DNA from: a virus
Lineage: Duplodnaviria > Caudoviricetes
Length of the DNA: 48,124 nt
Direction: 5' to 3' (one strand)
Virus record (IMG/VR): IMGVR_UViG_3300014160_000003
Coordinates: 1-48,124 of that record
Part shown: positions 18,220-37,652 of the stretch, piece after piece
Numbering within the stretch: position 1 is the stretch's first letter
Layout: each line of letters begins with the position of its first letter
The notes under the pieces: model-generated
Database searches by the model: none
The model's input: only the letters and a program-made list of their open reading frames with translations
What the model was told of the DNA's origin: nothing
Made by a program: the position numbers and the translations under genes

Positions 18220-18561
18220 TTACGCGGCTACAAAGCTGTGCTGCGCGTGAAACGACGCCGCTTTGTCGTGTCCCTGGCCCGCGCGCTGGTGCTCGTCGGA
18301 ACCGCCTTCGTCGCCAGCCTGCCAGGAGCGCGCGGATTCCTGGTAGTGGAGATTCGCGGCTTTCTCGTGGGCTTCGCCGGCGGCCTGGTGGTCTGCCGGA
18401 TCGCCACTCTCGCGCGCCGTCCGGCTCAACTCATGCGCCCGGTCGCTGGCGCCCTCAGCGTCCGTGAATCTTCCCTGGTCGTCGCGTGGCTGATCGTCCG
18501 AATACTTATAGAGGCTGCCCAACTCGCGGAGCTTTAATAGAACCGCCGGCGTGAACCTCAT
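18220..18561 (-). CDS. Hypothetical head-module protein
   Basis: YSDDQPRDDQGRF motif often seen next to MuF proteins; ATGA overlap with portal. Confidence 0.65.
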   Translation of the reverse strand: MRFTPAVLLKLRELGSLYKYSDDQPRDDQGRFTDAEGASDRAHELSRTARESGDPADHQAAGEAHEKAANLHYQESARSWQAGDEGGSDEHQRAGQGHDKAASFHAQHSFVAA

Positions 18562-20900
18562 TCGTCGTCATTTCCCCCGGCCGCGAGCACCGCGCGCGCC
18601 GTGCACCGGCAACCCGGGTGCGAGTCGTCCACTGGCATAGGCGCGTCCTCGATCGGGTACGGGCCGCCGTCGGCCAGATCCTCGCACTCCTCGCAGACGC
18701 CCTCGTCCTCGGAGTTCAGCCACTCGATCTCTTGCACCAAGCCCGTGGCTTCCCATGCATCGAGATTGCCCTGCGTCTGCGCCCTGCTGGTCTCGGTCTG
18801 TGCAATGAGCGCGGCGCGGTCATCCGAGAAGCACCCCGCCTCCTGGATCTGCTCGATCAGATCCGGCATGGGCGTTTCGGCCTTAAACGCGTCGGTTACA
18901 ATACCCCGCAACTCGCTGCGCGTCGTATCGGAGATGGCCATCTCGGCGCGCGGGTTCGCGACCAGCTCGCCATCCTTCCACTTCATGCCGACTATCTCGG
19001 CCGCGCGCTTTTCTGCCCAGTCCGCGGCGGTCTGGTTGACCGGATTGATCATGTCAGCGTCGCTGACATCGAAGTCGGCGAAACCCTTAGCGGCGCCGGC
19101 CTGGGCGGCGGTCTCCAGCGCTTGGCGCGCGTCCGGAGGCAGCCCGGCAGACTCGGCGTCGATGGCTTTCAGGAGCGCCTTCAGAAGCGCTTCCTGGCCG
19201 ATGGACGCCTTGGCCAGCTTCTCGGCGGGGGTGTATGCAACCAGCACCTTCACTGCGGCCGCGCGCTGCGCAGCGAACAGGTTCTTTAGCGCCTTCTTCA
19301 GATCCTTCTTTGCCGGGCGGCTGTCGCGCAGAAGCTTCCACGGCTGGATGGTTGGCGGCAGCAGTTTCGCGGCCTTCAGTAACGGAACCGGCGCCGGCGC
19401 CAGAAGTTTCAGCGCCTGGCGGCCATTCACCGGGCGGCGGCGGGCGAGGAGCTTGCGGAGCTTCTCCGTCTGCTCTTCGTCCGTCAAGCTGCTCGCATCG
19501 CCGTTTGCAGCGGGGGCGGCCGGCGGCGCCTTGCCGATGTCGGACAGCAGAATCGGCCCTTGTGCGGTCATCACAAACGGCGGAACGCCGAACGGCTCCT
19601 CGCCGTCGCGCTCGCGGACCTCGTCGATCCCGCGCCGGCCGATCTTGATCTCGTTGCAGTCGATGTCGCTCTGGACTTTGCGGTCCGTGTCTGCGCTCGG
19701 GTTGCAGATGCAGGTTACGCCGTCGATCCCCATGTGGTAGCGCGCGATAAAAGTGAGCTCGTCGGAGATCCAGTTCAGCAGCGGCAGCAGCCCTTCCTCC
19801 ATCGCGGAGTCGGCAAGTTGGTTGCTCGTCGCGCGGTTCATCATGTGGACGAACGGCGTGGGCGGAACCGAGAAGGCGTAGCAGACCACGCGCGCCAACC
19901 ACTCGTCCAGCTTGTCGGAGAGCACGCGGTCCTTGGTCTCGTGGATGTCGCGCGCGCTGGGGAACATGCGCACTGTGCGCCGCAGTTCCTGCTGGCCGAC
20001 CATAGTGTCCAGCCATTCCTGGAATTCCTTAATCTGCGCCGGCGTCCAGCCCTCCGGTGCGCTAACGATCATCTCGGGCACGTTGCCGTCTGTGTAGTAC
20101 TGAAGCTGCGAGAGCTGGCGGTGGATTGCCAGGTTGATCGTCATGAGAATCTGCTCGACTGGCGAATAGCCGTAGAACATGTGCACGCGAGGGTTGCGCG
20201 GCGAATAGACGAGCTGGTCCGTGGTCAGGTCCAGCGCCGGCATGCCCTTAATAATTTGCTGGTACGCGGGGTCCGGAGGCTGCGGTCGCCAGCCCTCGGT
20301 CGTGTGGAGCGGCTTGATGGTCGCCCCGTCGATGAGATTCAGCGAGACGACGTTCTTCGATCCCTTGTCGTGCACCGGCCAGATCGACAGCGCATCGATC
20401 ACAAAGACCTCTTCGAGCGCCATCCGAATCCAGTCGGCGAACTTGTGTTCCCGATCCGGACGCCTAAAGAACTCATTGAGGTAGCGCACGCGCGGGTCGG
20501 TCGCGACGCGTTCGTTGTACTTGTGCGTCTTCTCGCCTGGCTCCCGGTCTATCTGCCAGACCCATGGCATCTTGGCGATCTGGTCCTTACGCGTCTCGAT
20601 CACCAGGCGCAGGAGGTCGCAGTTGTCCGCGAACGCGCGGAGTTGGTGAAACGCGGCGCGGCCTGGCTGCTCGTCGCGCGGCTCGACCCAAAGGTTCGAG
20701 CCGAAGGGGTAATCGAACGCGCGCGGCAGCGTGTCGGCAGGCGCGACCGGCTTGAGCGGCTGGCCAGGACCGAACCACGCGCCGGGCGTGATGCTGGAGA
20801 TTACATCGAGCGCGCGGCTGCCCATTGAGATCAGTGCGGGCGACAGCGGCGTTTCGATGCCGCCTCCCGGCAGCCGGAGTTTACGAAGAAAATCGAACAT
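18558..20900 (-). CDS. Portal protein fused to MuF-like head morphogenesis domain
   Basis: Portal motifs (IDGATIKP, YGYSPVEQ, YYTDGNVP) then RAALIAQTE...C..C...HPGCRC. Confidence 0.85.
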   Translation of the reverse strand: MFDFLRKLRLPGGGIETPLSPALISMGSRALDVISSITPGAWFGPGQPLKPVAPADTLPRAFDYPFGSNLWVEPRDEQPGRAAFHQLRAFADNCDLLRLVIETRKDQIAKMPWVWQIDREPGEKTHKYNERVATDPRVRYLNEFFRRPDREHKFADWIRMALEEVFVIDALSIWPVHDKGSKNVVSLNLIDGATIKPLHTTEGWRPQPPDPAYQQIIKGMPALDLTTDQLVYSPRNPRVHMFYGYSPVEQILMTINLAIHRQLSQLQYYTDGNVPEMIVSAPEGWTPAQIKEFQEWLDTMVGQQELRRTVRMFPSARDIHETKDRVLSDKLDEWLARVVCYAFSVPPTPFVHMMNRATSNQLADSAMEEGLLPLLNWISDELTFIARYHMGIDGVTCICNPSADTDRKVQSDIDCNEIKIGRRGIDEVRERDGEEPFGVPPFVMTAQGPILLSDIGKAPPAAPAANGDASSLTDEEQTEKLRKLLARRRPVNGRQALKLLAPAPVPLLKAAKLLPPTIQPWKLLRDSRPAKKDLKKALKNLFAAQRAAAVKVLVAYTPAEKLAKASIGQEALLKALLKAIDAESAGLPPDARQALETAAQAGAAKGFADFDVSDADMINPVNQTAADWAEKRAAEIVGMKWKDGELVANPRAEMAISDTTRSELRGIVTDAFKAETPMPDLIEQIQEAGCFSDDRAALIAQTETSRAQTQGNLDAWEATGLVQEIEWLNSEDEGVCEECEDLADGGPYPIEDAPMPVDDSHPGCRCTARAVLAAGGNDDE

Positions 20901-22362: not shown

Positions 22363-23787
22363 CTATTCCCCGCCGCGCTTCCGTTTCTCGTCGGTTTCCC
22401 TCTCCGCGCGCTTCCGGTCTTCCACGGCCTGCGCTTCCTGCCGGTAGTACTCGAAGATGCCCTGGTTCGGCATCGCCTGGAAAAGCTCCGTGGATGCCCA
22501 GACGAGCCAGTCCACCCGATCGGGAGAGCCGTTAAGCCCGTAACCCGAAGGCGTGAGCGCGCACATCTGCTCTTCGAGTTCCGCGAACGACCCCACGTGA
22601 TGGAACCGGCCCTGCTCGTAGAGTGCAGATGTCGGCTCCGCGCGCACGGCCTTGCCGCGCGACGCGCTCACCTGGATCACCCGGACATTCGGGTCGACCG
22701 TGTGCAGCGTGCTCTCGACCATCGCGCCGCCGTAGTTCGTCTCCGCGACGATCGCGTCGGCTTCCCACTTGTGGTAGAGCGCTATGGCCCGAGCGGCCCA
22801 GCCCAGCGGCTTCAGCCGGCACGAGGCGTCCTCCAGCACATAGCCGTGGCCGTCCACGCCCTTGCCCGCCGCGCCGATCCCGATCTCGTCGCCCGCGTCC
22901 GACATGCTGCCGGCGGGATCGATCGCCACGACGATGCGCTGCATTTCCGGAGGCTTCGCCGGCGGGAGGATGCGGAGCTGGTCCAGCCTGGTCAGCGTCC
23001 AGAGCGCGCCAGGTACGTCGGTCAGGACCTCGGCCAGTAGTTCCTGGCGGCCGAGGCGCGTGCCCTCGTACTTCGTGATGATCTCCGTAAAGAACGACGG
23101 CGCCAGGTTTGCCCGATTTTCGTACGTCGTTCCCCGCGTTATTTTCGTTCGCGGGTCGCGAATCAACTCCAGCGTGAGCGGCACCGGCTTCGGCGTGGTC
23201 GTAATCACCACGCGCGGGTCCTCGCCGAGCCGCAGGCCGAGCATAAACATGGCCCACGTCTCCGGCCGCTTCCACGCGCAGATCTCGTCGCACCATCCAA
23301 AGTGGTGCTGCGGGCCCCGCAGCCGGTTCGGCTCCTCGGCAGAGTAGCCGCGGATGATGGCGCCGTTCGGCAGTATAAGCTTGTGCCGGGTCGAGTTGTA
23401 GCCCTTCCGGCAGAACGCCGGAAGCGACGCCAGGATTCCCGACTCGCCTTCGAAACATACAGATTGAACGTCGTCCGACGTCGGAGCTATAACCGCGATG
23501 CGCTCGCCCGGATGCGAAATGCCATAGTCGACAACTTCCTCCGCACCCACCCGGGTCTTGCCGAATCCGCGACCGGCCAGTAGCAGCCATCGTGTCCAAT
23601 CACCCTCCGGCCGGATCTGGTTCGCCCGTGGAGGCCCCGGCCTCGCCGTGATCTCCGGGCAGCGTCTGCCCAGGTACCAATGCTCCCGGCTCTGGACCAG
23701 CTTTTCGCCCCCAGGCACGCAGCGCAGCAAGGTAGCCGGCAACGGCGGTGGTGGCGGCAGGGTCCTGCACTCTGATCGGCTCCCCAT
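22363..23787 (-). CDS. terL: Terminase large subunit (start uncertain)
   Basis: AGRGFGKT Walker A, WCDE Walker B, ITTTP, VAIDPA nuclease motif, SPDRVD. Confidence 0.95.
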   Translation of the reverse strand: MGSRSECRTLPPPPPLPATLLRCVPGGEKLVQSREHWYLGRRCPEITARPGPPRANQIRPEGDWTRWLLLAGRGFGKTRVGAEEVVDYGISHPGERIAVIAPTSDDVQSVCFEGESGILASLPAFCRKGYNSTRHKLILPNGAIIRGYSAEEPNRLRGPQHHFGWCDEICAWKRPETWAMFMLGLRLGEDPRVVITTTPKPVPLTLELIRDPRTKITRGTTYENRANLAPSFFTEIITKYEGTRLGRQELLAEVLTDVPGALWTLTRLDQLRILPPAKPPEMQRIVVAIDPAGSMSDAGDEIGIGAAGKGVDGHGYVLEDASCRLKPLGWAARAIALYHKWEADAIVAETNYGGAMVESTLHTVDPNVRVIQVSASRGKAVRAEPTSALYEQGRFHHVGSFAELEEQMCALTPSGYGLNGSPDRVDWLVWASTELFQAMPNQGIFEYYRQEAQAVEDRKRAERETDEKRKRGGE

Positions 23788-24454
23788 CCTTACCGGTCAA
23801 CTCGGCGGCGATCTTCTCGCGCCAGTCCGGGTGCTTGGCCCGGAGCGCGCCAAGCATCAGGCCATCCGAGTAGCGCAACTGATAGCCGACCACCTCGCCA
23901 TCGTGATAGACGGCCTCTACCACTCCGTCCCTGGCGCGCCGGACGGCTTCCGCCTCGAGCACGTCGGCCGCTTCGAGTTTTGCGCGCTGAAACGCCTTGG
24001 CGTAGACATTGTCTTCATCAAGCCAGCGATAGTGCAGCCGGCGGTCGATCTTGACCGCCTCCGCGGCTCCGACCACCTGGCCGGCGGTCGCGATGTAGGC
24101 TTCGAGGAACGCGGCCTTCTTCGAGACGCCGCGCTTGGCTTCGAATTTCCAGCGTGCCGGCGGCGCCGGCGGCGCGCTGTTGAGATACTGCCGGGCAAAC
24201 GAGCGAAATAGCGCCCGATTTTTGCCGCTCAGTGCGCTCTGCCGGAGTGCGACGATGCCCTTCAGCCGGCCGCGCTTGAGCGATTCCCGGATGGCCGCCG
24301 ACGACTTCTGGCGCGCGGCGAATTCGGCTTCCGTCAGGCCGAACCAGGCTGCGATCTCCGCGTCGGTCGACTGGAGCGCCGCCAGCTTCTCGAGCTCCGG
24401 CAGCGGGATCGGCGCGGCGGCCTTCGGTTTGGGCTTGGCTGAGGGCTTCCGCAT
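23600..24454 (-). CDS. terS: Terminase small subunit
   Basis: KAAFLEAY..., LEAEAVRRARDG, YSDGLM, ELTGKDGEPI motifs; extra N-terminal HTH; directly upstream of terL. Confidence 0.8.
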   Translation of the reverse strand: MRKPSAKPKPKAAAPIPLPELEKLAALQSTDAEIAAWFGLTEAEFAARQKSSAAIRESLKRGRLKGIVALRQSALSGKNRALFRSFARQYLNSAPPAPPARWKFEAKRGVSKKAAFLEAYIATAGQVVGAAEAVKIDRRLHYRWLDEDNVYAKAFQRAKLEAADVLEAEAVRRARDGVVEAVYHDGEVVGYQLRYSDGLMLGALRAKHPDWREKIAAELTGKDGEPIRVQDPAATTAVAGYLAALRAWGRKAGPEPGALVPGQTLPGDHGEAGASTGEPDPAGG

Positions 24455-24510
24455 GCACGTTAGCCTCCAGCCTGTGCGACGTCTATTTTAAATTGACGAG
24501 CACTTTTTGC

Positions 24511-24540
24511 TTGCAATCCGGGCGCACCGGAGTGATTAAT
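24511..24540 (+). promoter_or_regulatory. Probable sigma70 promoter of DUF3489 gene
   Basis: TTGCAA ... ATTAAT upstream of AAAGGAG RBS. Confidence 0.45.
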
Positions 24541-24637
24541 CGTCATGCACTAGCCACGCCGCCGGATCGCCCGCGCCCGCCCGGTCCAGGCGGGCTTGCC
24601 GGCGTGAAGTACCAAACTTTCAAAGGAGACGACCACC

Positions 24638-25288
24638 ATGTTTTTTACGATCGACGCAGACAATAACATCACCACTTACGACGCCCAGCCCGCAGCGGCC
24701 GAGGGCGACATTTCATTTGCCAGCCAGAAGGAATTCACAGCGGCCACCAAGGACTGGCCCAGCGCCCGCTTTGTAGCGGTCTGGAACACGCTGGCCGGCA
24801 CGCCTGGACCGTTCGCCAAGCTGAAGGAAGTCAAAAAGTTCATGGACCGCCAGACGGCCATCAACCGCATCTGGAACGTGATCCACATCCTCTCCGGAGA
24901 CCCGGCCAAGGACATGGAGGCGCTACAGGCACTGGCCGCTGCCAAAAAGGCCGCCAGGGACGGTTCGGAGGCCGCCGCAGCCACCAAGGTCCAACCAGAG
25001 AAGCCTGGCGCGCCCAAGGCCAAGAAAGGCGGCACGGAAGCCAAGCAAAAGAAGCCAGCCAAGCCAGCCGCAGACAAACCCGCGCAGAAGCCGGCGGAAG
25101 GCAGCAAGAAGGACGCAGTGATCGCTATGATGCGCCGCAAGGGCGGCGCGACGCTGTGCGAGATCATGGACGCGACCGGATGGCAATCCCACACGGTTCG
25201 CGGATTCGTCGCCGGCGCGCTGAAGAAGATGGGGCTGGTTGCCGAGTCCACCAAGAACGAGGCCGGCGAGCGCACTTACTCGCTGTAG
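24638..25288 (+). CDS. DUF3489 domain protein
   Basis: SKKDAVIAMMRRKGGATLCEIMDATGWQSHTVRGF...ERTYSL. Confidence 0.9.
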   Translation: MFFTIDADNNITTYDAQPAAAEGDISFASQKEFTAATKDWPSARFVAVWNTLAGTPGPFAKLKEVKKFMDRQTAINRIWNVIHILSGDPAKDMEALQALAAAKKAARDGSEAAAATKVQPEKPGAPKAKKGGTEAKQKKPAKPAADKPAQKPAEGSKKDAVIAMMRRKGGATLCEIMDATGWQSHTVRGFVAGALKKMGLVAESTKNEAGERTYSL

Positions 25289-25311
25289 GACGCCAGCCAC
25301 CGCTCCAGCCC

Positions 25312-25339
25312 AGCCGCCCGGAAACGGGCGGCTTTTTTT
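25312..25339 (+). terminator. Rho-independent terminator
   Basis: AGCCGCCCG-GAAA-CGGGCGGCT followed by T-run. Confidence 0.9.
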
Positions 25340-26150
25340 ATGCATTTGCATTCACTTTGCCCGCCCGTTTCTCTGTCAGGTCTGCGAACGTCCGGCCGTC
25401 GCCGGCCAGCACTGCGCGCTTCCCGCTAAATTCCTGCCAGCGCTTGATGACCACATCGCAGTATCTCGGGTCCAACTCCACCACGCGTGCCTGGCGGTCG
25501 TTCTTGTGACACGCGATGATCGTGGTGCCGGAGCCGCCGAATGGGTCCAGTACGGTCTCGCCCGGCTTGCTGCTGTTTTTCAGCGCGCGTTCGACGAGTT
25601 CTACCGGCTTCATGGTCGGATGCTCCAGGTTTGCCATAGGCCTCTTAATGGCCCAGACGTCGCCCTGGTCGCGGTCGCCGCACCAGAAGTGTTGCGCGCC
25701 CTCGCGCCAGCCATATAGGATCGGCTCATACATGCGCTGGTAGTCGGATCGGCCCAGCGTAAAGTGGTGCTTAGCCCAAATGACAAACGTTGACCAGTGG
25801 CCACCGGCGGCAGCGAACGCGGAGAACAGCGTGTGCAGCTCCGAACTCGACATGCAGACGTAGACCGCGCCCTTTGTGACCGTCAGGATGTTACTGCAGG
25901 CCGCCTCAAGGAACTCGCGGAACTTCTCGCCCAGGCTGTCGTTACCGATCTTCAGCTTCTTGGCCGTCTTGCCCTCGTACGCCACGTTGTACGGCGGATC
26001 GGTGAACGCCATCGCCGCCTCGCCGCCGTCCAGCACCTTCTGGACGCTCCCCAGATCCGTCGCGTCGCCGCAGAGCAGCCGGTGCTGCCCCTGGACCGGC
26101 GCGGTGAACGGCTTGTGGCACTTCGTGCACGTGTGCTTCTTCTCAGCCAC
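25338..26150 (-). CDS. DNA methyltransferase, beta class (DPPY, likely N6-adenine) with N-terminal CxxC
   Basis: HRLLCGD, FTDPPY, HPTMKP, LDPFGGSGTT, ELDPRYCDV; GTG start at MAEKKHTCTKC. Confidence 0.9.
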   Translation of the reverse strand: MAEKKHTCTKCHKPFTAPVQGQHRLLCGDATDLGSVQKVLDGGEAAMAFTDPPYNVAYEGKTAKKLKIGNDSLGEKFREFLEAACSNILTVTKGAVYVCMSSSELHTLFSAFAAAGGHWSTFVIWAKHHFTLGRSDYQRMYEPILYGWREGAQHFWCGDRDQGDVWAIKRPMANLEHPTMKPVELVERALKNSSKPGETVLDPFGGSGTTIIACHKNDRQARVVELDPRYCDVVIKRWQEFSGKRAVLAGDGRTFADLTEKRAGKVNANA

Positions 26151-27255
26151 GCGCTGCCCCCTTTCGGAGCTTCCGCGCGACCGTGGCAGCGTCGGACTTT
26201 GCGCCGCCCATATTGTGGAGCGGATTGCCCTTGGCGAAGCGATGCATGCCCTTCGGCGCCGGCGGAGCATCCGCGCTGGTGCCTCGGGCGGCCGCCACGG
26301 CTTCGAACGACTGTCCGGTCGCCTCGAGGACGGCTTTGGCTGTGCCCAGCGGGCCCATGCGCATGCGGCGCACGATGACGTCGCAGTAGCCCGGCGACAA
26401 TTTGATGCCGTAGCCGGAGCGCCCCAGGATCTGCGCGGCTGCCATCGTGGTGCCGCTTCCCATGAACGGATCATAGACCACATCACCCGGGTCGGAGAAG
26501 CCTTTGATGAAGAACTCGACCAGTGCGCGCGGAAAGGGAGCGGAGTGCGAACCTTGTGTGGACTCGGTCTTGGCATCGATCACATTCGAAGGCCTGGCCA
26601 AGCCTCCGAACCTGCCATCATTCCCCGACGCACCGGGTTTGCCGGCGGCCGGACCGCGAGCGCCACTGCCAAGCAGCCCGCTTCCGGATGTCGCCTTCGG
26701 ATTGTTCGGGCTGTAGCCGAAACAGTCCTCCGACTTGTGGCTCACCGCCTCCGGCCGGAATTTGATTTCCTGCTGGCGGCAAAAGTGAAACACCGGCTCC
26801 CAAGCGTTCTTAAAGCGATTTTGCCAGCCGCCCGGTACACCGTTGTCGGTCTTGCGCCAACAGAACTCGTCCACGAAGCGCCAGCCCCACTGGCGCTTGT
26901 GCGCCAGGACCAGGTCCTTGACGTAGAGGCTGCGCTCGCCTTCGCCCGCGTGCTCCTTGATGTTCAGAAAGTACGAGCCGTCCGGCGCCAGCACGGCTTG
27001 GATTGCCGCAGCCACCGCGCGGAACCACTCGACGTATTTCTCCTCCGGGATCGGCTTGAAGCCGCTCGAGGCGTCGTACTCCCGCTGGCTGGCATAGGGC
27101 GGGGAAGTGATCACTACGTTGGCTTTGGCTGCGCCAAACAGGCGCGCTGTGGCACCCGGGTCGCGCGAGTCGCCGCACAGTAGCCGGTGGCGGAACTGGA
27201 CCGGCCCCGTGGCCGATTTGCCACAATGCGCGCAGGTTACGGTCGCCTCAGACAT
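26143..27255 (-). CDS. DNA methyltransferase, beta class (SPPY, likely N4-cytosine) with N-terminal CxxC
   Basis: HRLLCGDS, ITSPPY, HSAPFP, YDPFMGSGTT. Confidence 0.9.
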   Translation of the reverse strand: MSEATVTCAHCGKSATGPVQFRHRLLCGDSRDPGATARLFGAAKANVVITSPPYASQREYDASSGFKPIPEEKYVEWFRAVAAAIQAVLAPDGSYFLNIKEHAGEGERSLYVKDLVLAHKRQWGWRFVDEFCWRKTDNGVPGGWQNRFKNAWEPVFHFCRQQEIKFRPEAVSHKSEDCFGYSPNNPKATSGSGLLGSGARGPAAGKPGASGNDGRFGGLARPSNVIDAKTESTQGSHSAPFPRALVEFFIKGFSDPGDVVYDPFMGSGTTMAAAQILGRSGYGIKLSPGYCDVIVRRMRMGPLGTAKAVLEATGQSFEAVAAARGTSADAPPAPKGMHRFAKGNPLHNMGGAKSDAATVARKLRKGAARG

Positions 27256-27823
27256 CGTTGTGGTGGTGGCAGCGCGGGCACTCCACGTATGCGCCCAGCA
27301 GCCAGAGATCGCCCAGCACGGTGACCGGCACCTCGGGAACCTCAGGGACGCTATCTTCGTCCGTGAGTCCCCCCCCCCCCTCGGAGAAGGCTTCTATCTC
27401 ATTCGGATCGAAGCCGGTCAGCCCCAGGTCGAAGTCCAGCGCTTTCAGATCCTCAAACTCAAGCGCCAGCACTGGAAGATCGAACTCCGCCTCCTGACTG
27501 GCCCGGTTGTCGGCGATGCGGTACGCCTTGGCCTGCGCCGGCGTGAGATCCAGTGCAACGTGGACCGGCACCTCGGGCAGACCCAGCTTCTGGGCGGCCA
27601 GCAGGCGCGTATGGCCCACAACAATGACGCCCTTCGCGTCGACCACAATCGGCTGGCGGAAGCCAAACTCCTGGATCGACGCCGCCACCTTGTCGATGGC
27701 CGACTGCGGGATCTTGCGCGGGTTGCGCGCGTACGGGATCGGCTTCGACGTGGGCCAGGCCTCACATTGCAGGCCGGGCGGAAGCGCCGGTTGCTGTGCT
27801 TGTGGCTGCGATTTCTTCTTCAT
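27248..27823 (-). CDS. ParB/sulfiredoxin N-terminal domain protein with C-terminal CxxC
   Basis: PYARNPR, SIQEFGFRQPIVVD, GHTRLLAA, YRIADNR; ends GDLWLLGAYVECPRCHHHNDV. Confidence 0.9.
   Translation of the reverse strand: MKKKSQPQAQQPALPPGLQCEAWPTSKPIPYARNPRKIPQSAIDKVAASIQEFGFRQPIVVDAKGVIVVGHTRLLAAQKLGLPEVPVHVALDLTPAQAKAYRIADNRASQEAEFDLPVLALEFEDLKALDFDLGLTGFDPNEIEAFSEGGGGLTDEDSVPEVPEVPVTVLGDLWLLGAYVECPRCHHHNDV
27369..27380 (-). repeat. G12 homopolymer in ParB-like gene
   Basis: Twelve consecutive C on the + strand. Confidence 0.95.
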
Positions 27824-28052
27824 TGATCAGCTTCCTGGCGTCCGGCCCCGTGCAAGGAGGGATAAGTCAGCGGGTTATAGGTGTGTACCCGAATAGCGGT
27901 TGTGTTCGGAGAAAACGGACGCACGGGGACGGACGACAAGCTCGTTGGAATCTGTGTGATGGCGCTCCCCGCGGCCATGTGCCGGCAGGTCCCAGGCGAT
28001 CGAGGCGCAGAAATCGTCGTCCTCGAAGCTGAATGGCCACATGGCTGCATGC

Positions 28053-28277
28053 TCAAGCGCCAGCGCGGGCCTTCACGCCGCCGCGCGTCTTGGCGGCGCA
28101 CTCCCAGAGCCGAGCGGCGGCGAATGCGGCTTCCCACGCGTTTCTGACCGCCGCGGAGAGCTGCCACCAGGTCGCGACCGGCGTGCCGTCGCAAATCGCA
28201 GTGGAGCGGCAGCCGCCGCAGAGCGCCTCGCGATAGGCATCGTACCCGACCTGGCCTGGAGTGCGATCGAAGTTCAC
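28053..28277 (-). CDS. Hypothetical phage protein
   Basis: TPGQVGYDAY...WWQLS...AWEAA; overlap with upstream stop. Confidence 0.6.
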   Translation of the reverse strand: MNFDRTPGQVGYDAYREALCGGCRSTAICDGTPVATWWQLSAAVRNAWEAAFAAARLWECAAKTRGGVKARAGA

Positions 28278-28516
28278 GCGCCGCGCCTCTGCAGGATCAA
28301 GTCGCGAAGCGTTTTAACTTCGGTCGAGACGGCATCGCCGTGCGCCCGGCACAAATCCTTATCCACGAACCGGCCTTCGATCCACGCGCGCATGTCCGCA
28401 ATCGCTTTTTGCAGCCGCACCTCGCTGCGCGCGACCAGCAGCGCGTTGATGATCTGGCAGGCCAGCACGACGACGCCAAAGATCGCACTCAGAAGAAAAT
28501 AGAGCCACTCGGTCAT
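28274..28516 (-). CDS. Small protein with N-terminal TM helix
   Basis: Hydrophobic N-terminus then coiled coil. Confidence 0.65.
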   Translation of the reverse strand: MTEWLYFLLSAIFGVVVLACQIINALLVARSEVRLQKAIADMRAWIEGRFVDKDLCRAHGDAVSTEVKTLRDLILQRRGA

Positions 28517-28519
28517 TGG

Positions 28520-28804
28520 TCATACCTCACTGAGTGATTTGATCTTCAGACCGTCGAAAATAACCCGCAGCGCGGTGATGGCCCGCGTGTGCCGCGCGTG
28601 AACGCTCGACACAGCCAAATCCAACTCCCCGGCGATCGCGCGGAAGGGCACGCCGTCCCGGTAGCGGCGCCGGACGACGAGAGCGGAGTCCGGATCGAGT
28701 TGCGCGAGGGCGCTATTGAGGAGCTGTCGCCGCTCGAGTTCGCGCAGTAGCTCTTCCGGAGAGCATTCGGGAGGTGCTTCCAGTGTCTCGCTTAGGCGGC
28801 GCAT
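28520..28804 (-). CDS. Sigma70 region-4-like HTH protein (possible late regulator)
   Basis: ALAQLD...VVRRRY..GVPFRAIAGELDLAVSSVHARHTRAITALR. Confidence 0.75.
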   Translation of the reverse strand: MRRLSETLEAPPECSPEELLRELERRQLLNSALAQLDPDSALVVRRRYRDGVPFRAIAGELDLAVSSVHARHTRAITALRVIFDGLKIKSLSEV

Positions 28805-29214
28805 CGCGCGAGCGGCGGACAGACTGGGCGCCCGCCGCCGGTCTTCGCTGCGAGCCGATCGGGATTAAACCGACGCGGATTGAAGCTTACGCGGTCGGAC
28901 CACGGAATCAGCGCCTGTGTCTCGCGGTGGACCCGCTTCAACATGGGCAGCATCGTCTCTTCCAGGTGCTCCTCGTAGCCGGGCTGGCGGCTATCGAGAT
29001 GCACGCTGCGCTTCCCCGACATGTCGTCGAACGAGAGCACGTTGATTCGCACGACCTGACCAGTCTTGTGCTTGCGCACAACCTCGGCATTTGGCGCGTG
29101 CTCGTATCGATGCACGCTGCTGTCGTCGCAAAAGTCGACGATCCGCGGGCCGCAGTGAATGGGAATCTTTCGCATGTTGGAACGTAGTGGGAGTTGCCTG
29201 GAAACGGCGGACAA
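28792..29214 (-). CDS. Hypothetical protein
   Basis: Co-oriented ORF filling operon; start uncertain. Confidence 0.55.
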   Translation of the reverse strand: MSAVSRQLPLRSNMRKIPIHCGPRIVDFCDDSSVHRYEHAPNAEVVRKHKTGQVVRINVLSFDDMSGKRSVHLDSRQPGYEEHLEETMLPMLKRVHRETQALIPWSDRVSFNPRRFNPDRLAAKTGGGRPVCPPLARCAA

Positions 29215-29265
29215 GATTTTCGACCCGCCCGAGGGTCGGTGGCCGGAGACCGGCCAGCATGAGCA

Positions 29266-29715
29266 CTACGCAGCCTTGGCGATCTGCGCGACCGCCTGGC
29301 GGCGGTGTGTCTTCACTGAACGCGGGCCTGCGCGTAACGGCGCGCTCACAATTTTCGCGAACTTCTCGGGTGCGAGCTTTGCCTCCTCAACCGCCTTGAT
29401 CGTGATGCTGGAGGCTTCCAAGTAGGCACCCTGTCCGAGGACCGCGAAGGCTGCCCGCTTGTCGACTGTGCGCACGTTGCCCATTGCGGAGACCAGCGCG
29501 GCGTACTGATAGCCCTCGTACTCATCGGCCTGCTGCGGCGGCGAGCTCGCGCTCCAGCCGATAATTTCGAGAGCTATCTCTTTCCGGCGCGCCCCTCGCG
29601 CTTCCTCCAGCGACGCAAACTGAGCCTCGATGTCGCCGAGTTCGTCGATCAGCTTCCGCCGGCGATGTGCTTCTTTCGACAGCGGCGAGATTTTCTTTGT
29701 TTTGGAGGGCTTCAT
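29266..29715 (-). CDS. Hypothetical protein
   Basis: LIDELGDIEAQ coiled coil; start set at MKPSKTK. Confidence 0.65.
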   Translation of the reverse strand: MKPSKTKKISPLSKEAHRRRKLIDELGDIEAQFASLEEARGARRKEIALEIIGWSASSPPQQADEYEGYQYAALVSAMGNVRTVDKRAAFAVLGQGAYLEASSITIKAVEEAKLAPEKFAKIVSAPLRAGPRSVKTHRRQAVAQIAKAA

Positions 29716-35618: not shown

Positions 35619-36455
35619 TTAACAGCGTACCTCAGCCATCGCCGCCAGCAGCGCGTGCCGCTCCAACTCCGGCATCCGCTCGAGGCGCGCGACCCAGCGC
35701 TTCTTCCTCCGATTGATTTTCTCGCGCTCCCTGAAGCCACGCCCGAGGTAGCGATAGTCGTGGAGTTCGGTGGGCCGCGGGAAGTTGAACCACAGCCACT
35801 CCGTCTTTTGCTTGCCGGCCCGCGTCATCGCGTCGTACGTGACGCTGTTCCAGCCGGCCAGCGCCTCGGCATACATCTCCGACCAGTATCCGGAGATCAT
35901 CGCGGCGCAAGGCAGATCCTGGAGCACTCGCAATAAACGCTGGTGCTCGGCGTCGGCCATCTCGCAGCGATAGAGCCGGCGGCCCGAGCGCGTGGCCATC
36001 ACGTATGGCGGATCGCAGTACACGAGCTCGTTGCCGGCGAAGGGATAACACGCCAGGAAGTCGATCCCGTTCCCGTGCACGAAGTGGAAGCGCGGGAGTA
36101 CTCCATCGCCAGTTCCGCCGCTGGAGGCCTGTATCGCCGCCCCTGGCGAGTGGTGATGACGGGCATCGCCCGAGGCGGCGTGCGGATCCGCCATCGCCGT
36201 TTCGCGCGAACGGTACGCCTCGCCGTTTTTGCCGGCGTCGGCCGAACGCGACGGATCTGGCGAGGGAACCGGCGGCATCGTCACTTTGGGCGCGCCCGGA
36301 TCTATGTCGATGCCAATATTGAGCGCCGCCGGTCGCTTCAGCCGCATGATCGCGCCGGCGCCAAGGAACGGCTCGATGTAGGTCTGGTGGGGCGGCATCA
36401 GGTTGATGATCGTGTGATAAACGCCTGGCGCGTTCTTTCCGCCTGGATACGCCAT
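35619..36455 (-). CDS. Dam-like (D12 class) N6-adenine DNA methyltransferase with repeat-encoded insert
   Basis: YPGGK, YIEPFLGAGA, GIDID, VYCDPPY, MISGY, TEWLW. Confidence 0.9.
   Translation of the reverse strand: MAYPGGKNAPGVYHTIINLMPPHQTYIEPFLGAGAIMRLKRPAALNIGIDIDPGAPKVTMPPVPSPDPSRSADAGKNGEAYRSRETAMADPHAASGDARHHHSPGAAIQASSGGTGDGVLPRFHFVHGNGIDFLACYPFAGNELVYCDPPYVMATRSGRRLYRCEMADAEHQRLLRVLQDLPCAAMISGYWSEMYAEALAGWNSVTYDAMTRAGKQKTEWLWFNFPRPTELHDYRYLGRGFREREKINRRKKRWVARLERMPELERHALLAAMAEVRC
35911..35932 (-). repeat. 22-bp inverted repeat, left copy
   Basis: TGCGAGTGCTCCAGGATCTGCC on - strand, identical to 41593-41614 on +. Confidence 0.9.
36105..36295. repeat. Seven-unit palindromic array inside the MTase gene
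   Basis: Units at about 36105, 36133, 36165, 36193, 36219, 36247, 36277. Confidence 0.85.
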
Positions 36456-36720: not shown

Positions 36721-36817
36721 GTGCATAAAACGTTCGTTCGTGCACTCTAAAAGCGCTTCAAATCTAGGTTTTGGTTGCAACACGTTTTTCGCCCTTTTTC
36801 AAGGACGTTTTGTGCAC
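36721..36817. other. Candidate res-like site at 3' end of serine recombinase
   Basis: GTGCATAAAACGT ... ACGTTTTGTGCAC inverted pair in AT-rich DNA. Confidence 0.45.
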
Positions 36818-37468
36818 ACCTTTGGCGGGGGAGCCGAGCGCCTTCCTTAACGACGATTGCGGCACGCCCATTTCCTTCTCGATCTTCCTCCAACTCATGC
36901 CGCCTTTCCTCAATTCGCGTGCGCGCTGGCGATCGAAAATTCGCGGCGGCCGGCCGCCCACGTGTCCCTGCTTTCGCGCCCGCACCAGGCCGGCCTTGGT
37001 TCGCTCGGAAATGCGAATGCGCTCTTGCTTCGCCACCCAGGCTAGGACCGCCATCAGCAGTTCGCCGGCAGGTCCGGTGGTTCGAAAGAACGGCTCGGTG
37101 TAGCTCTCGAACTGGATGCCGTAGTCGTGGAGCATCTTCACGTGCGCGAATGTGTCCAGCACGCCCTGCCTGGTAAATCGGTCGAGCGCCCATACCAACA
37201 CGACCTCGAACTTCCGCCGGCTTGAGTCCGCAAACATCAATTGCAGCGCGTCGCGGTCGGCGTGCTTGCCGGTCTCGTGGTCGATGTACTCGACGGCTGT
37301 CCAGCCCTGCGCCTTCGCGTAGCGACGCAGATCGAGGAGCTGGTTCTCCGTGTCCTGGTGCTTGGACTGCCAAGCGGCGAGCTTTTCCTTATATTTTGCG
37401 AGTGCTTCGCCGGCTTTGCGGACCGGTTTCGCCTTGGTGCTGACCCGAGCGTAGATGGCGCAGTTCAT
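36764..37468 (-). CDS. Small serine recombinase (resolvase/invertase family)
   Basis: AIYARVST, Q...L, VWALDRFTR, ISERTKAGL.RAR.QG..GGRP, C-terminal HTH; 234 aa from MNCAIY. Confidence 0.93.
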   Translation of the reverse strand: MNCAIYARVSTKAKPVRKAGEALAKYKEKLAAWQSKHQDTENQLLDLRRYAKAQGWTAVEYIDHETGKHADRDALQLMFADSSRRKFEVVLVWALDRFTRQGVLDTFAHVKMLHDYGIQFESYTEPFFRTTGPAGELLMAVLAWVAKQERIRISERTKAGLVRARKQGHVGGRPPRIFDRQRARELRKGGMSWRKIEKEMGVPQSSLRKALGSPAKGVHKTSLKKGEKRVATKT

Positions 37469-37564
37469 GAGATTGGAGTCCTCGGGCGGGCGCCCGAATC
37501 GCCGGCGGGTTCGCGGGCGAGTGGGGGAGCGCCCGCGCGTATACCAGTGTACGCCGCCGGCGTC

Positions 37565-37652
37565 CTCGCCGAGTCCGTCGCGGCTAGCTAGCCACGCTGG
37601 AAACGGCGATCGGCGCCCGGCGGCCATCGCCATTCGCGGCGTTGGGATCCGG
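37565..37652. repeat. Three-unit palindromic array upstream of recombinase
   Basis: CTCGCCGAGTCCGTCG, CACGCTGGAAACGGCGAT, ATCGCCATTCGCGGCGTTGGGATCC. Confidence 0.65.

Follow-up and report, generated by a model that had tools for sequence, protein, structure and literature searches.

We have analysed a 48,124-nucleotide (nt) stretch of phage DNA (IMG/VR virus record IMGVR_UViG_3300014160_000003; Duplodnaviria, Caudoviricetes), whose full length is called the window below. Three minus-strand open reading frames (ORFs) at 25338-27823 encode a ParB-N adaptor (ParB) and two beta-class amino-methyltransferases (MTases), designated MT1 and MT2. We consider it likely that a ParB-MTase fusion has been cut in two here and its methylase half doubled, with one ParB adaptor docking either methylase and the pieces predicted to reassemble. 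The split, cysteine-capped ParB-MTase is real and conserved; fused ParB-MTases are a kind already known. Coordinates are collected in Table 1.

The adaptor (P0001) is composed of a ParB_N domain with a GHTR box, an acidic proline-rich linker, a docking strand and a putative half zinc site, and its R73 and N106 are kept in at least 90% of 60 aligned rows. Its C-terminus in the window reads GDLWLLG-AYVECPRCHHHNDV followed by the stop, and the codons of its CPRC knuckle lie at 27280-27278 (C182) and 27271-27269 (C185). The N-termini of MT1 and MT2, called plugs below, read MSEATVTCAHCGKSATGPVQFR-HRLLCGD and MAEKKHTCTKCHKPFTAPVQGQ-HRLLCGD, respectively; the start codon of MT2 is GTG, preceded by AAAGGGGG. 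Two cysteines per chain are present in these ends (CPRC in ParB, CAHC in MT1 and CTKC in MT2). When the three proteins are aligned with phrog_498, the family of fused proteins, ParB residues 9-177 cover positions 24-199, and MT1 and MT2 begin from positions 200 and 199, respectively; the tiling is gapless, with the cut exactly between GDLWLLG and HRLLCGD. An original prediction, made from the letters alone, had claimed that the string is cut at the fusion point, that ParB ends in CxxC and both MTases open with CxxC before HRLLCGD, and that the genes are coupled by short overlaps, and all of this is borne out by the tiling, the ORF sequences and the two overlaps of 8 nt. In both MTases the (D/S)PPY motif precedes the FxGxG motif for S-adenosylmethionine (SAM), which is the beta-class order, and the best solved-structure match of the MT1 catalytic region is M.PvuII, an N4-methylcytosine (m4C) enzyme. 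The SPPY or DPPY motif by itself is not decisive for the target base; judged from the motifs, MT1 (SPPY) probably produces m4C and MT2 (DPPY) probably N6-methyladenine (m6A). MT1 also continues past its phrog_498 match, which stops at residue 327 of 370, with a basic C-terminal stretch of some 40 residues (window 26143-26270, minus strand).

Relatives were collected from viral, genome and metagenome contigs, which were scanned by ParB-side patterns blind to the downstream DNA and once from the MTase side; the numbers of relatives given here and below are samples, among the matches listed, and not totals. From 471 loci and the window, 256 motif hits were kept and 49 rejected, and these were collapsed to 139 distinct tails (the window being counted once), of which 78 have two cysteines, 55 four, 1 five and 2 three, 2 are cut by contig ends and 1 is fused. 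Behind two-Cys tails, CxxC opens 100 of 106 MTases and CxC another 4, so that a knuckle is present in 104 of 106; the two exceptions, which have neither, are 1-nt indels in knuckle-bearing starts. Behind four- or five-Cys tails, a knuckle was found in 0 of 86 MTases, whose starts read M-x-x-L-x-L-K-S-x-HR. Five real loci dropped by the filter (L249, L288, L319, L342 and L394) and six whose first MTase was missed by the pattern (L038, L051, L273, L293, L449 and L450) all obey this tail/plug rule where they show an MTase. Because the ParB cysteines were pattern-selected, nothing follows from their invariance; for MTase starts, such selection applies to the MTase-side scan alone. That scan gave 19 distinct hits, of which 14 have a CxxC-ended ParB upstream and five have only 300 nt of upstream sequence. 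Paired terminal CxxC in homologous loci, as the original prediction expected, was therefore seen from both sides, and two-Cys loci carry knuckles on both partners rather than on one only.

The plugs are uniform in other respects as well. The spacing from knuckle to His is 11 residues in 92 of 100 plugs, C8 and C11 are kept in at least 90% of 75 MTases with synonymous TGC/TGT exchange, and the C-terminal docking extension is kept in 107 of 153 MTases by a strict pattern. Across the relatives one ParB accompanies one to three catalytic genes, the commonest MTase pair being SPPY followed by DPPY or DPPW (23 two-Cys and 17 four-Cys loci). Their named hosts include Planctomycetota, Acidobacteriota, Armatimonadota, Lentisphaerales, Alphaproteobacteria and Clostridia. 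A locus near-identical to that of the window (L247) sits in a metagenome-assembled genome labelled Solibacteraceae, and this label suggests an acidobacterial host for the window phage. In L047 (minus strand), gaps of about 390 nt between ParB and MT1 and about 636 nt between the MTases hold small ORFs without a Pfam family, and the plugs are kept. As for cultured phages, the window tail was unmatched among 50,697 annotated phage records, and a four-Cys tail gave weak hits only.

An uncut form of the junction exists. The single chain P0007 (458 amino acids (aa), locus L375) reads GDLWLLG-AREV-CQHC-x8-CDSC-x9-HRLLCGD, and the cut site in the window is the position of this four-Cys insert, each piece keeping two cysteines. 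The same protein is present in L291, and a near-copy (P0008) on 13 contigs. The ParB part of P0007 is the nearest relative of the window ParB among the matches listed (sister, support 99, 61% identity), and in L375 a DUF3489-like convergent gene, whose translation was inspected, follows the fused gene as in the window. Four states of the family can be distinguished: the insert may be absent, intact, cut between its knuckles (2+2) or kept whole with the cut behind the knuckles (4+0). Since the tree is unrooted and P0007 is nested among split forms, it may be a re-fusion and not the ancestor. No further fusion with a Cys insert was present in 46 hits of the P0007 junction against 1.84 billion representatives, and a weak search with the 4+0 tail against longer proteins found no fused ribbon form. 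P0009 was not counted as a second fused form; it is without a ParB domain, stands on one short contig and has split-type cluster mates.

On the trees, one plug type gives way to the other repeatedly. On a tree of 139 MTase catalytic cores, from which plug columns and the window's two rows were excluded, plug type changes 20 times, at least 14-17 of these changes being forced by strong branches, and it is still more clustered than with shuffled labels (mean of 46.5 changes); the same catalytic clades are found with either plug type. On a ParB tree (85 rows, several long branches), there are 15-18 changes, of which 7-9 are forced. Between L244 and L016, identity is 81% for ParB and 82% for the MT2 core, but the plugs are opposite: 2+2 in all three genes of L244 and 4+0 in L016, internally matched in each. 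As far as these sequence comparisons go, plug type follows the locus and not the enzyme. That ParB and both MTases switch in concert points to selection for an interface that matches, although gene conversion between MTase 5' ends could contribute to the pattern. It might be supposed that the MTases stand alone, that ParB has some other role and that the matched ends come from shared ancestry and gene conversion and not from contact. The catalytic core is indeed complete in each MTase, and passages of PMC6536676 describe lone ParB genes beside modification genes for ParB-Tls loci. However, the plugs switch together in ParB and both MTases, the N-terminal plug and mostly the C-terminal docking extension are kept, and a strong MT2/ParB complex is predicted (see below); we regard this supposition as very improbable.

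A complex of MT2, ParB residues 150-191 and zinc was modelled by ESMFold2 and scored 0.89, versus 0.00 for the best control; in the calibration, 116 of the 157 solved pairs and 2 of the 215 mismatched ones attain that mark. At least 88% of contacts are common to the runs, and the partner has a predicted local distance difference test (pLDDT) value of at least 85. The strongest predicted contacts join ParB 168-176 to MT2 23-27 and 228-247, which are strands of a beta-hairpin, and the 25 best-scored contacts all involve ParB 168-176 and no knuckle cysteine. Both Cys pairs (MT2 residues 8-11 and ParB 182-185) are in the predicted interface list, which names no zinc ligands. The ParB-MTase contact through the CxxC ends that had originally been proposed is thus supported for MT2 in that the knuckles belong to the predicted interface, but its centre is misplaced, the strongest contacts being beta-strands and not cysteines. 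Since the best predicted contacts are these strands, zinc probably serves in such a model to latch a strand-swap interface.

An AlphaFold2 (AF2) model of P0007 residues 131-458 has a mean pLDDT of 87.1 (92-93 in the docking segment), with strands at DLWLLGA and HRLLC. It resembles CcrM (Z 24.6, root mean square deviation 2.8, 224 residues aligned) and M.BceJIV (Z 23.4). Most of the top solved MTase matches align from model residue 63-67, which is the HRLLC strand, and the alignments of PvuII, MboIIA and type III Mod reach back to residue 30-38. According to the models, the MTase half contains the catalytic core, and what the ParB tail would complete is an accessory subdomain. With the core wholly in the MTase, ParB more likely targets or activates the enzyme than completes it.

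Several points weigh against joining of the pieces through a shared zinc site. The calibration of the complex score is only rough, own alignments and metal having been used for the complex and no metal for the calibration; halves of split genes tend to pass such a test by likeness to one-piece folds; and the prediction covers MT2 only. In the AF2 model of P0007, the ribbon is predicted less well (pLDDT 72-79). Because the best stand-alone beta-class MTases mostly align from HRLLC on, the MTases may work alone. A third cysteine (CxCxxC) is found in 88 of 100 MTase plugs and CxC only in 4, both window MTases being without the third cysteine; these plugs make the ligand set and the metal uncertain, and iron may be an alternative metal of the knuckles. 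Many relatives are close kin, so that the counts overstate independence, and decay occurs among them (L001 has a decayed four-Cys-type tail without an MTase, and L052 an MTase fragment only). In the related system of PMC13229309, no stable complex of ParB and enzyme could be trapped.

Since a Cys-free version of the plug exists in 4+0 loci, a shared metal is not the sole way of joining the parts. We hold it to be unlikely that the pieces reassemble by beta-strands alone, with the knuckles being a tolerated relic, perhaps of an HNH invasion, or binding metal in homodimers of their own in the style of the Rad50 hook. The 25 top contacts without a knuckle cysteine and the 4+0 loci, which join without MTase cysteines, speak for strands alone, and the ParB knuckle CPxC resembles the Rad50 hook. 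On the other hand, knuckle totals stay complementary through the repeated switches, and the fused chain has both knuckles; a relic is also difficult to reconcile with the retention of C8 and C11 in spite of synonymous codon exchange. A CxxC-starting HNH gene does lie in the cut of seven relatives, after the ParB stop and before the first MTase, in L006, L008, L240, L384 and L404 (5 of 136 classed loci) plus L249 and L288. These genes occur with both plug types, and their family has an N-terminal CxxC..F..HFN..CS..C finger, but its comparison with the plug by hhalign gave probabilities of 9.4% and 8.5% only. The cut of the window has no HNH gene, and the MTase directly adjoins ParB in 114 of the 136 classed loci, so the nuclease is occasional in the sample and not usual. 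From such an arrangement, the HNH gene may have caused the fission, as mobE did in Aeh1 nrdA, or have invaded later.

There is only a slight chance that ParB and MT1 are joined after all, by programmed frameshift, ribosomal bypass or splicing, into a chain with an internal zinc ribbon, MT2 being a spare cassette. The fused ribbon chain P0007 exists, the window MT1 has no obvious Shine-Dalgarno sequence, and the first MTase is in the +1 frame in 47 of 50 4+0 loci, for which reason geometry alone does not decide against a frameshift in that class. In 2+2 loci, by contrast, the first MTase occurs in either frame (4-nt overlap in 33 of 60 and +1 frame in 27 of 60), which makes a conserved frameshift unlikely there. 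Joining is further contradicted by the whole HNH gene between the parts in some loci, by second and third MTases that carry the same plug far from ParB, and by an RNA-run contig that crosses the ParB/MT1 junction unchanged, possible DNA carry-over being borne in mind. For inteins, no Pfam family was found in the window, no end motif (HN[CST]) at any MTase junction examined, and the ends are too short. An intein, splicing or a single programmed frameshift is accordingly not supported, as frames vary, the junction is unchanged and a splice motif was not found.

The split is also not an artefact. L247 has junctions identical to those of the window, the ParB/MT1 junction is spanned without indels by contigs of runs X2 and X4 and of RNA run X6 (for which DNA carry-over is possible), and the MT1/MT2 junction by contigs of X2, X3, X4 and X5; run X1, from which the window may come, was left out of this support. 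Assembly error was rejected on the grounds that L247 and the other-run contigs keep the junctions. A decayed gene or an assembly error is scarcely credible, as over 130 distinct loci show the same architecture, and for the architecture it is already refuted, although MT1 Lys285, the assembly-variable G12 run (both described below) and a few decayed relatives would fit it; only the MT1 allele may be dead. The proposal that the arrangement evolved and did not decay is strengthened by the same junctions and at least 78 distinct two-Cys tails, a number far above what chance would give. A joint in X5 (26003-27290, 81 letters between) is not a rearrangement, and fits an ordinary fused gene of another organism. 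The RNA runs cover the operon in part only, and their gaps carry no information on expression.

Two details of this copy deserve mention. The acidic residue of motif II binds the SAM ribose. MT1 has Lys at this position (residue 285; 26403-26401), a feature missed in the original prediction; relatives have an acidic residue, which is E or D in 100 of 100 pattern-matched cores (of 139 cores), and the MT2 residue is Glu. Because all the pattern-matched cores have E or D there, the window's MT1 allele is probably inactive, as judged from its sequence. Position 285 is Glu in 4 of 6 cluster members, in L247 and in runs X3 and X6; runs X1 and X2 have Lys, the alleles corresponding to a T/C difference at window 26403 among runs and assemblies. 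Contigs of X4 and X5 stop at 26402, a weak hint of both alleles there. The other detail, likewise missed in the original prediction, is the G12 homopolymer upstream of the ParB socket. The G13 form (P0021, 157 aa) gives a ParB that ends before the socket; a G run of at least 8 in ParB is found in the window lineage only, among the 139 distinct tails listed. Contigs of every run break at G12 with error-like letters behind, and an error in the homopolymer is no less likely than phase variation.

The neighbouring genes are included in Table 1. A search for sigma-70 promoters in 24300-29300 gave no match. The DUF3489 flanks (24521-24547 and 25310-25335) were both found in runs X1 and X2 on a 381-nt contig, 34 letters apart and in swapped order, from which we take them to be motifs common to related elements. 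The 284-aa terminase small subunit (23600-24454, minus strand) matches in tandem phrog_309 (residues 7-67) and phrog_4044 (residues 103-235), which are different small-terminase families. A 780-aa portal protein is fused to a Mu gpF-like head morphogenesis domain (18558-20900, minus strand). A third, unrelated MTase gene of the D12 class (N6-adenine; PF02086, phrog_56) lies at 35619-36455 (minus strand), and a resolvase gene is near it at 36764-37633.

Table 1. Features of the split ParB-MTase locus and its neighbourhood in the window
Feature	Position	Strand	Basis
ParB-N adaptor P0001, 191 aa	27248..27823	-	Pfam PF02195, 29.3 bits (cut-off 26.3); phrog_498 positions 24-199
ParB socket, residues 168-191	27251..27322	-	GDLWLLG strand (171-177) and CPRC knuckle; sequence and predicted contacts
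MT1 P0002, 370 aa, beta-class amino-MTase, SPPY	26143..27255	-	PF01555, 125 bits
MT2 P0003, 270 aa, beta-class amino-MTase, DPPY	25338..26150	-	PF01555, 89 bits; phrog_498 positions 199-448; complex prediction
ParB/MT1 stop/start overlap, 8 nt, ATGTCTGA	27248..27255	-	Sequence
MT1/MT2 stop/start overlap, 8 nt, GTGGCTGA	26143..26150	-	Sequence
G12 homopolymer in ParB, upstream of socket	27369..27380	-	G13 in other assemblies
Terminator-like hairpin between convergent DUF3489 gene and MT2	25312..25341	+	Consensus match only; 6 sites versus shuffle mean of 4.0
DUF3489 protein, convergent	24638..25288	+	Pfam PF11994
Terminase small and large subunit genes	22363..24454	-	terS 24454-23600, terL 23787-22363

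ParB-Tls loci were reportedly defined by Iyer et al. in 2013, as told by citing papers, and the terminase genes next to the cassette place it in such a locus. Fused ParB-N6/N4 MTases of these loci are treated in passages of PMC6536676, PMC4738411 and bioRxiv 10.1101/2025.10.10.680097, and prophages often carry such fusions, which make up 36 of 58 amino-MTases of the Paracoccus survey in PMC6536676. The window has the same two domains (PF02195 and PF01555; phrog_498) in the same place upstream of terminase genes, but in three polypeptides and not one, with a stop and a new start at the junction and a Cys knuckle pair at the cut. The passages of the three sources mention no split or zinc-containing ParB-MTase. 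A description of the split, Cys-capped form was not found in the full-text literature, mostly of non-subscription journals; the supplements of Iyer et al. 2013 and of the 2025 preprint may list such architectures.

Likenesses to other systems are partial. In the phage T-dioxygenases (5mYOX/ParB) of PMC13229309, a separate phage ParB-N without a DNA-binding domain, as in the window, activates a DNA-modifying enzyme with cognate specificity. The enzyme class differs, the window partners being PF01555 MTases and not 2-oxoglutarate-Fe(II) dioxygenases; the pair is not described there as a split fusion, and "zinc" is absent from the main text of that paper. In phage Aeh1, nrdA was broken up by the HNH gene mobE into NrdA-a and NrdA-b (PMC3045599), likewise a gene in pieces with terminal tails for assembly, but according to that source the tails are oppositely charged and drive dimerisation of a heterodimer with one partner, whereas the window has Cys knuckles, several partners and no HNH gene. 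As in the CD4/CD8-Lck zinc clasp and the Rad50 zinc hook (PMC12198760 and PMC5093744), two cysteines per chain would share one zinc; there is no homology, and the putative window site resembles a zinc ribbon cut by fission inside a beta-strand interface. M.AquI and M.EcoHK31I (PMC3404938, in the parts concerned) are also natural two-piece DNA MTases, but of the C5 class, cut inside the catalytic motifs and with fixed 1:1 partners, while the window cut is outside the catalytic core. Split inteins and a free-standing endonuclease mark the fractured genes of PMC2677866, where a phage gene of DNA metabolism is also broken, sometimes with a nuclease between; the window is without an intein, its ends having 14 and 22 residues and no splicing motif that could be found.

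For the split fusion that we favour, a mechanism can be proposed as follows. ParB 168-176 would pair with the HRLLC strand and the C-terminal extension of the MTase, and ParB C182 and C185 would meet C8 and C11 of MT2, as predicted in the complex; the four cysteines would hold one zinc. MT1 would dock likewise, its plug and C-terminal extension being retained. ParB would be unneeded for the catalytic fold, and by analogy with the activation reported in passages of PMC13229309 may target the MTases to, or activate them on, phage DNA. Action may be late in infection, near packaging, as part of PMC4738411 predicts. Owing to the split, the phage would be able to keep several specificities with a single adaptor and to exchange them. 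A wider scheme, possible but rather doubtful to us, is a plug-and-socket epigenetic system: ParB would be a nucleoside triphosphate-switched dimer with a standard socket, latched by a zinc ion that the chains share, and a pool of m4C and m6A cassettes would be traded among phages at the HRLLCGD junction and acquire the local plug. In that scheme one dimer could hold two methylases, metal or redox state could gate assembly, and in the window phage G12 could turn everything on or off.

The natural split, unlike the fusion, separates the MTase from ParB. If the clasp is real, it would be a microbial addition to the few studied inter-protein zinc sites, and would provide protein engineers with a docking tag of about 40 residues. 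Gene fission would then have turned one enzyme into a module of one adaptor and many enzymes.

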